64,000 nt of DNA, taken from positions 19,344,001 to 19,408,000 of the forward strand of contig OZ024753.1 of the NCBI GenBank assembly GCA_964016885.1. Direction: 5' to 3'. This document shows, piece after piece, positions 39,421 to 41,010 of this stretch. The translations under genes were made by a program, and so were the position numbers. The notes below the pieces were generated by a model. It was given only the letters and a program-made list of their open reading frames with translations. It was not told the DNA's origin and did not search any database. Position 1 is the stretch's first letter. Every line of letters starts with the position of its first letter. The stretch is from Eledone cirrhosa. Lineage: Eukaryota.

Positions 39421-41010
39421 ATAAATGGAATAGAATGAAACGAAATTTCATTTCTCACTCTTAGTACGGCACTTACTTAAATGTAAGTATGTATGTATAC
39501 GTACATACATACATGTATACAGACGTACAGTAGCATGTATATATATATATATATATATATATATATATATATATATATATACATATATACATACAGGCAC
39601 ACATATATATATGCATGTATCAGTTTACCGAACATTTATTATAATGTTCGCTCTGTTCGTTTGTAAACAAACGGACAGCCTGCTATACGCCGTACAGTGT
39701 TCAGGCAACCACGTCACCTTTTTGTTCAACACTGACACAGGAACGATGTACTAGTTTCAAGCTTGTTAGCAATCGTCAACACAGTATACCTTTCTGCCAG
39801 ATGGTTGAACGTTCGAAAGTATATACTTTCCTTATGAAAATTAACGGCTGAGCAGCCTAATTTGCATATCAAGTTAGTTCAGTCGGCCAGGCGCACCGAA
39901 AACGATAAATGGAATAGAATGAAACGAAATTTCATTTCTCACTCTTAGTACGGCACTTACTTAAATGTAAGTATGTATGTATACGTACATACATATATGT
40001 ATACAGACGTACAGTAGCATGTATATATACATATATATATATATATACATATATACATACAGGCACACATATATATATGCACGTATCAGTTTACCGAACA
40101 TTTATTATAATGTCCGCTTTGTTCGTTTGTAAACAAACGGACAGCCTGATTTACAGTGTTCAGGGAACCACGTCACCTTTTTGTTCAACACTGACACAGG
40201 AACGATGTACTAGTTTCAAGCTTGTTAGCTATCGTCAGCACCGTATACCTTTCTGCGAAATGGTTGAACGTTTACAAAAGAACAAAGCAAACATTATAAT
40301 AAATTTTCGGTAAACTGATACGTGCATATATATATATGTCCCTGTATGTATATGTGTATATATATACATATATATATATATATATATATATATATATATA
40401 TATATATATATATATATATATATATATATATATATATATATATATATATATATATATGTATATATATATATATACATGCTACTGTACGGCTGTATACATA
40501 TATGTATGTACGTATACATACATAATTACATTTAAGTAAGTGCCGTATTAAGAGTGAGAAATGAAATTTCGTTTCATTCTATTCCATTTATCGTTTTCGG
40601 TGCGCCTGGCCGACTGAACTCACTCGATATGCAAATTAGGCTGCTCAGCCGTTAATTTCATAAGGAAAGTATATACTTTCGAACGTTCAACCATCTGGCA
40701 GAAAGGTATAGGGTGCTGACGATAGCTAACAAGCTTGAAACTAGTACATCGTTCCTGTGTCAGTGTTGAACAAAAAGGTGACGTGGTTCCCTGAAGACTG
40801 TACGGCGTAAATCAGGCTGTCCGTGTGTTTACAAACGAACAAAGCGAACATTATAATAAATGTTCGGTAAACTGATACGTGCATATATATATGTGTGCCT
40901 GTATGTATATATGTATATATATATATATATATATATATATATATATATATACATGCTACTGTACGTCTGTATACATATATGTACGTACGTATACATACAT
41001 ACTTACATTT
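39421..41010. mobile_element. Family F: ~484-bp partial tandem units plus inverted copy, each with an HHR
   Basis: Unit start ataaatggaatagaatg at 39421 and 39905. HHRs at ~39743-39785 (-, mutated), ~40202-40244 (-) and 40712-40750 (+; ggtg-CTGACGA-tagctaacaagctt-GAAA-ctag-TA-catc). Confidence 0.88.

Follow-up and report, generated by a model that had tools for sequence, protein, structure and literature searches.

A dispersed hammerhead ribozyme repeat of Eledone cirrhosa, best read as a non-autonomous retrozyme mobilized by Penelope-like elements

Non-LTR retrozymes, as defined by Cervera and de la Pena 2020 (PMC7229834), form circular RNAs in coral, mussel and axolotl, and Penelope-like elements (PLEs) were named in that work as their likely helpers. 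The hammerhead ribozyme (HHR) of canonical metazoan form has a helix I of 6 bp, a helix II of 4 bp and a helix III of only 1-2 bp under a palindromic loop, and it needs a dimer (Cervera and de la Pena 2014, PMC4209133); the minimal HHR of PLEs has a helix II of 7-8 bp and a helix I of 4-5 bp. HHR pairs lying 100-700 bp apart on opposite strands were already reported there. In newt satellite 2 and schistosome Sm-alpha, too, the repeats measure a few hundred bp and carry an HHR, cleavage being most efficient in the dimer (PMC6155905); newt satellite 2 uses an snRNA-type promoter (PMC2220036).

The insertions of PLEs themselves have a recognizable form. They take the shape of a partial tandem, to which an inverted copy truncated at its 5' end and, at one end, a tail of 30-40 bp are often added, and the Naiad and Hydra elements target (TA)n (Craig 2021, PMC8557442). 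Head-to-head inversion with an optional tail was described by Arkhipova 2013 (PMC3846280), who suggested self-priming. Further, Frangieh 2024 (PMC11167929) found that a PLE protein cuts AT-rich DNA and extends both strands, and that reverse transcription starts inside the RNA at two sites bounding the tail, with neither target homology nor a need for HHR cleavage. The mobilization of animal retrozymes by PLEs has so far been argued from co-occurrence and sequence kinship. Indeed, Li 2026 (bioRxiv 10.64898/2026.07.22.740005) supports a PLE origin of retrozymes by co-occurrence and pLTR kinship, leaves the mechanism open, and reports cleavage in only one of nine predicted dimers. A word search of its available text finds "inverted" only in a reference and "tail" nowhere; among the titles and abstract openings of a partial literature collection, we found no description of tail and inversion together on retrozymes.

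In this report, we describe a family of ORF-less units with a type I HHR, termed family F, that occupies three loci in a window of 64 kb (the whole 64,000-nucleotide stretch of DNA analyzed) from Eledone cirrhosa. BLAST of unit 39421-39904 against the window recovered loci A (39421-41011), B (~11154-12190) and C (46076-46675), each consisting of two arms in opposite orientation; beyond these, a profile search of the window returned only TA-repeat matches and a weak match at 45250-45321. Unit coordinates below take the predicted HHR cut as 0 on a ruler of 484, strands are given in RNA sense, and T1 and T2 denote unit positions 271 and 327, respectively.

39421..40272, minus: left arm of locus A, 1.8 units, unit positions ~420 to 327, outer 3' end at T2
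40270..41011, plus: right (inverted) arm of locus A, 1.39 units, positions 81 to 271, outer 3' end at T1
11154..11622, minus: left arm of locus B, 1.05 units, positions 234 to ~260, intact HHR core with cut at 11379
11622..12190, plus: right arm of locus B, 1.38 units, positions 77 to ~261, HHR core with two changes and cut at 11979
46076..46307, minus: left arm of locus C, positions 12 to 252, its 5' end lying 12 nt past the cut site (+12)
46305..46675, plus: right arm of locus C, running from the HHR cut site, where its 5' end lies (-1 to +4), to 327 (T2) as its outer end
45297..45321, minus: displaced outer tip of the left arm of locus C, ending at T1, separated by a later LINE insertion

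An earlier note on this DNA had described head-to-tail units of ~484 bp at 39421 and 39905. Those starts, and 484 bp as the spacing between them, were borne out, but the second unit is only ~0.75 of a unit, such that the tandem amounts to 1.8 units and not to an array. Nor is 484 bp the monomer in a stricter sense: the periods inside single arms are 459, 484, 557, 443 and 423 bp, a spread of 423-557 bp that exists because the TA run within the unit varies. With TA runs cut to four repeats, the same-arm periods become 451, 448, 465, 427 and 419 bp. Only one cut-to-cut monomer is present in the window:

39749..40207, minus: HHR-to-HHR monomer, 459 nt

The inverted, more-than-unit copy that the note had placed next to these units is there, at 40270-41011, and its diverged subfamily at locus B, 11-17% from locus A, does cover the whole unit. 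Locus C was absent from that note, as was the one-sided, PLE-type tail described below, which we regard as the most informative feature of the family.

An inverted pair is found at all three loci and a partial tandem at two. Four of the six arms are longer than one unit, to a maximum of 1.8 units, and four span the whole period unbroken; the unit thus closes on itself. As the note had stated, there is no ORF to speak of: the longest ATG ORF is 49-67 aa on the four arm strands tested, Pfam gave no match for the two stop-to-stop frames in the locus A units, and no ORF remnant was found in the arms. Judged by these ORF lengths and the closed unit, family F has no protein coding and no LTR, and its tandem units of a few hundred bp lie head-to-tail. 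These properties, together with the helix sizes of its type I HHR and its more-than-unit copies, agree with the assignment to non-LTR retrozymes made earlier. With its HHR and its PLE-type insertions, family F fits the class of non-LTR retrozymes, or non-autonomous PLEs, an already known kind.

Like metazoan non-LTR retrozymes (PMC7229834; Li 2026), family F is ORF-less, has one type I HHR per unit and a GC content below 50% (36% in the monomer), and its size is near the reported 150-450 bp and inside 51-972 bp. Its helix III has a palindromic cap as in axolotl HHR_Amex1, and the U-U pair at the base of helix II resembles that of HHR_Amex2 (PMC7229834); its HHR has the canonical metazoan shape and not that of the PLE minimal type (PMC4209133). 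Its arms do not exceed 1.8 units, always occur as inverted pairs in (TA)n and carry a one-sided tail, features for which the text consulted in these sources gives no counterpart among retrozymes. Those very features are shared with the endonuclease-bearing PLEs Hydra, Neptune, Naiad and Poseidon, in which partial tandems, an inverted 5'-truncated arm, an optional tail, a (TA)n target and an HHR are all found (PMC8557442, PMC11167929, PMC3846280). In contrast to those elements, family F has no RT-endonuclease ORF and a period below 0.6 kb, and its tail is 56 nt long as opposed to the published 30-40 bp (PMC8557442). Unlike newt satellite 2 and Sm-alpha, it is dispersed, not arrayed, in this window.

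Five copies of the HHR motif are present, with cut sites at 11379 (minus), 11979 (plus), 39749 (minus), 40208 (minus) and 40746 (plus). The note had given each unit one HHR. One is present, but it lies on the strand opposite to the direction in which the units had been read (minus in 39421-40272, plus in 40270-41011), and in the unit at 39421 its core bears C3U. The copies of locus A are as follows.

39749..39779, minus: HHR core with C3U and a single mismatch in each of helix I and helix II
40208..40238, minus: intact HHR core, predicted cut after 40208
40716..40746, plus: intact HHR core with one helix I mismatch, predicted cut after 40746

Scanning the window with a strict motif recovered the intact copies, which make up three of the five cores; that at 39749-39779 is, from its sequence, probably crippled, the copy at 11949 (cut 11979) has two core changes, and locus C is without an HHR core. 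The motif is not a chance occurrence, because shuffled windows produced a strict-class match in 0 of 20 cases and any match in 3 of 20. Rfam reported no hammerhead in the whole window at the gathering score, and a permissive search of 39400-41600 gave TA-repeat noise with no hammerhead family among 109 rows; the HHR call therefore rests on the motif and on the analysis of pairing. In the type I fold, helix I has 6 bp, a 3-nt bulge and then 3 + 6 further pairs, helix II has a U-U pair at its base, 4 bp and a loop of four bases, and helix III has 2 bp inside a 6-nt palindrome. Across the five copies, 94% of 105 cells are paired, compared with 27-44% for slid controls. Covariation adds little: one of 21 pairs is changed on both sides (GU to UG; five related copies), values as high were reached in 51/500 and 345/500 shuffles, and outside the HHR the fractions are 1/60 and 1/34, the independent copies being too few. 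What looked like a compensatory change between the arms of locus B was lost in a fixed register. A covariance model of this HHR found only its five training copies strongly, the next match having an E of 0.062, and the exact 30-nt pattern had no match in 185,579 prokaryotic genomes, where an animal repeat would not be expected. A 14-nt palindrome lies upstream of the HHR (39808-39821 and 11446-11459); by eye, it stays perfect in locus A and the left arm of locus B despite two changed bases, and it is a candidate hairpin or protein site.

Can these ribozymes release a monomer? Cofolding of two copies of the 40746 motif predicts an intermolecular helix III of 6 bp. In the two-HHR transcript of the left arm of locus A, helix I has a probability of 0.00-0.07 by equilibrium folding, a method that takes neither tertiary contacts nor proteins into account. 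A dimer fold is thus possible according to the folding model, but is not favored in context. The window's only tandem HHR pair (40208 and 39749) includes the C3U core. Since in the dimer model each core would cut its partner's site, locus A can probably not release a monomer well. No locus has two intact tandem HHRs; the two consecutive units with complete HHRs by which Li 2026 recognizes active copies are not found in the window, which leaves membership of the family unaffected. Locus A is an unlikely source copy because its one HHR pair includes a mutated core, and the copies in the window look like decayed offspring rather than sources. Unit-length or circular RNA from family F, proposed in the earlier note, remains a candidate drawn from the sequence.

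The anatomy of the insertions is more telling. Read in RNA sense, the two arms of each of the three loci meet head-to-head, and their 3' ends point outward into (TA)n. The motif CATTTA occurs just twice in the sense monomer, at T1 and T2, which lie 56 nt apart. Four of the six outer ends fall exactly on one of them, loci A and C each having one T1 and one T2 end, and both outer ends of locus B fade into TA repeat within ~10 nt of T1. A one-sided tail of 56 nt results at two of three loci. At locus A, the tail and its surroundings are:

39422..39477, minus: one-sided tail, the 56 nt between T1 and T2, the putative start sites of reverse transcription
39332..39423, no strand: left flank, (TA)46, presumed target
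41012..41038, no strand: right flank, TA-rich, presumed target

All six outer ends abut TA-rich repeats once a LINE interruption is accounted for; a target duplication is unreadable within TA tracts. That interruption lies in the left arm of locus C, where an insert lies between the two copies of an 11-bp duplication (45311 and 46075); when translated, this insert matches an RT-bearing protein (P0146) and C2H2 fingers. The piece at 45297-45321 continues this arm, short of four bases, to position 271. The LINE, having inserted into locus C, is therefore the later of the two. The inserted segment, 45322-46074, comes from the 3' part of a non-LTR retrotransposon; it encodes two C2H2 fingers and bears a trinucleotide tail.

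The inner ends differ in every arm (~420, 81, 234, 77, 12 and the cut site), and the bases shared at the inner junction number three at A, one at B and up to three at C. L1-type twin priming on one linear RNA is out, as the arms overlap and none of the six inner ends is at T1 or T2. Arm lengths tend to go together within a locus (permutation p 0.067), a hint that the second arm could have arisen by fold-back copying of the first.

Divergence within loci is 1.8-7.7% at A, 6.1-7.4% at B and 4.5% at C; between loci, it is 4.7-7.8% for A-C and 10-17% for A-B. Private variants are common to the arms of one locus (five columns in C). Loci thus differ more than arms do and have variants of their own, and we therefore count three separate events from three source variants. 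Within arms, successive passes have no consistent first-unit versus second-unit variants.

The earlier note was also right that the units contain internal (TA)n.

39538..39593, no strand: internal TA run of variable length; others lie near 40022-40059, 40326-40474 and 40902-40951

The run occupies unit positions 168-211, and its longest uninterrupted stretch varies from 6 to 46 repeats across nine passes, which slippage after insertion would give. The suggestion that the unit carries this microsatellite as a target of its own is not supported, and neither is a role as priming site. None of the six outer ends lies in the run, the ends being at ~260-271 and 327, and priming there is rejected; in two of three subfamily B passes measured, the run is only (TA)6. 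From its sequence, it could still be a target for self-insertion. The same TA-rich part largely accounts for the predicted fold of the monomer (72% paired, z -7.0): the other parts score z -0.7 and -2.2, which do not stand out from a background of +0.5 to -3.0. The unit is rich in palindromes. The promoter of newt satellite 2 includes an octamer, and family F has a comparable motif:

39860..39867, minus: octamer-like motif, also at 40629, 11490 and 11862

This motif is kept in all four copies that cover that part of the unit; chance would supply 5.65 per 64 kb, or ~0.04 per unit. It is a possible promoter element, a weak lead that may be chance.

The tail, the inversion, the partial tandem and the (TA)n target together make up the published PLE signature, and on these grounds we read the insertions as PLE products. 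Tail length apart, family F agrees in each respect with the account of Frangieh 2024 (PMC11167929). Our best reading is that family F is a non-autonomous non-LTR retrozyme mobilized by a PLE, and mobilization of this kind with two internal start sites is, in our judgment, likely. A source copy elsewhere would be transcribed as a more-than-unit RNA. Pairing of neighboring HHRs via the palindromic helix III would let them excise monomers of ~420-465 nt, and these may be circularized by host ligases. A PLE protein would nick a (TA)n tract, and reverse transcription would start inside the RNA at either CATTTA, T1 or T2, some 250-330 nt downstream of the cut. Two cDNA arms would then grow inwards, halt at variable points and be joined where they share 1-3 bases; the product would be an inverted pair, tailed by 56 nt at one end only.

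The form of the template is a separate matter. Arms longer than one unit, four of which cross the cut site unbroken, need either a circular or an uncut multimeric template, and we put a circle at roughly an even chance. The other view is that the parasite and its PLE are the same but that the template consists of uncut read-through multimers, circles being absent or incidental and the HHR mattering little; this view, which concerns the template only, we hold to be a serious contender at somewhat less than even chance. For the anole PLE, mutating the HHR left insertion normal in vitro, with uncut RNA as the main substrate (PMC11167929), and here no arm extends beyond 1.8 units, the HHR is predicted to fold poorly in context and the low z of the monomer comes largely from its TA-rich part. 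Against this stand the HHR helices, which are retained between subfamilies 11-17% apart, and the related retrozymes of coral, mussel and axolotl, which do form circles (PMC7229834). The lack of unit-to-unit variants within an arm is what a single circle predicts, but a uniform array would predict it also.

Locus C might reflect a mixed case. One of its arms ends at the cut site and the other 12 nt before reaching it, and a cut monomer would allow nothing longer. Locus C could thus derive from linear, HHR-cut RNA, and loci A and B could go back to circular templates traversed more than once. We consider this rather doubtful: the chance of one end in six falling within 4 nt of the cut is ~0.11, and no second arm end at the cut site was seen among the six ends at three loci.

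If the arms were solo pseudo-LTRs or 3' ends of an autonomous PLE, the insertion signature would be the same. Such kinship is not far-fetched, as there are 21 Repbase PLE matches among the 24 of 57 Xenopus retrozyme families with TE homology (Li 2026), which makes descent from a pLTR likely. However, the unit closes on itself, with the period unbroken in four of six arms; ORF remnants are lacking; and helix II is short and helix I long, unlike the PLE minimal HHR. Moreover, the earlier note had named constant attachment to a Penelope ORF as evidence against its reading, and none of the six arms adjoins a PLE ORF, the PLE queries being Hydra-clade proteins only. We therefore regard this explanation as improbable.

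Long inverted arms between TA tracts resemble a MITE. A foldback or MITE-like DNA transposon, or a locally duplicated minisatellite, with a vestigial or chance HHR, would suit this resemblance and the many palindromes of the unit; we give it slightly less credence still. Against it, the arms are unequal at their outer ends, the inner junction is private to each locus, and the arms are permuted, more-than-unit repeats. The distances also speak against later local duplication: adjacent tandem units, at 2.5%, are no nearer to one another than to the inverted arm (1.8-4.8%). Finally, the inversion is hardly an assembly or read fold-back artifact, even in a window with at least 10 other inverted structures, given that arms are 2-8% apart with private indels and that a LINE, flanked by an 11-bp target duplication, sits within one of them.

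A PLE-mobilized retrozyme requires a helper, and the window has a trace of a suitable kind. Ten Hydra-type proteins queried against the window by tblastn matched only 43355-44833, a broken, 5'-truncated PLE with a CxCX5C linker and no CCHH motif. Among its full-length homologs, CxCX5C is present in 10/10, RWK in 9/10 and DKT in 8/10, and these three are marks of the Hydra clade (PMC8557442). By its sequence, 43355-44833 is a relic of a Hydra-type PLE, which places a (TA)n-targeting clade in this genome. Family F shares no sequence with this relic or with the other HHR relics of the window (best blastx E 1.3, best blastn E 0.037); the relic therefore shows only that a suitable enzyme class existed here. 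The element as a whole (43119-45051) has RT, linker and GIY-YIG regions, an N-rich stretch between RT and endonuclease and a 60-bp inverted match between its ends; no HHR was found at its 3' end.

The surroundings hold other repeats. Other two-armed HHR families, at 2865/3146, 4690/6293 and 49832/50193, have the same outward polarity as family F. Inverted, outward, HHR-bearing families extend over 2692-3300, 4645-6392 (arms near 0.7-0.9 kb), 10677-10930, 49300-49526 and 49668-50391, the last being an HHR palindrome nested in another repeat, of which there is a near-perfect palindrome at 2433-2580. Further families are represented by single hammerhead-like motifs, at 6595-6626, 41505-41543, 41785-41833, 46956-47004 and 48915-48945. 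The density of such motifs in the window is unusually high, with none at the Rfam gathering score. The HHR relic at 41505-41543 and a coding relic at 38319-39008 are not parts of family F, but neighbors across TA tracts. The coding relic to the left of locus A (38319-39331), for which Pfam had no match, we take to resemble the C-terminal part of an L1/Tx1-type RT, and the final 96 bp of the relic are found again at 48627-48722. Tandem LINE copies at 28281-32072 and 33775-37585 are 92% identical, encode RT and zf-RVT and end in (AAT)n, with further 3' fragments at 13736-14501 and 25500-27050; the named homologs of a nearby LINE protein are from shrimp, sea urchin and jellyfish, at 44-56% identity. 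A 47-bp minisatellite of 58 copies (57616-60341) and a 48-bp repeat of 4.4 copies (47501-47714) complete the picture.

The evidence for family F comes from three loci in one 64-kb window, and three decayed loci prove nothing about circular RNA. If locus C does derive from cut RNA, family F would be a natural record of HHR products serving as PLE templates in vivo, in contrast to the in vitro result for the anole PLE; if two template forms exist, a genome-wide tally of inner ends could test the circle model from DNA alone. The PLE footprint on an ORF-less HHR monomer is structural evidence for mobilization in trans, and the ends at T1 and T2 point to a cis signal read by the PLE enzyme. Family F offers a small, cheap substrate for asking whether PLE enzymes use circles.
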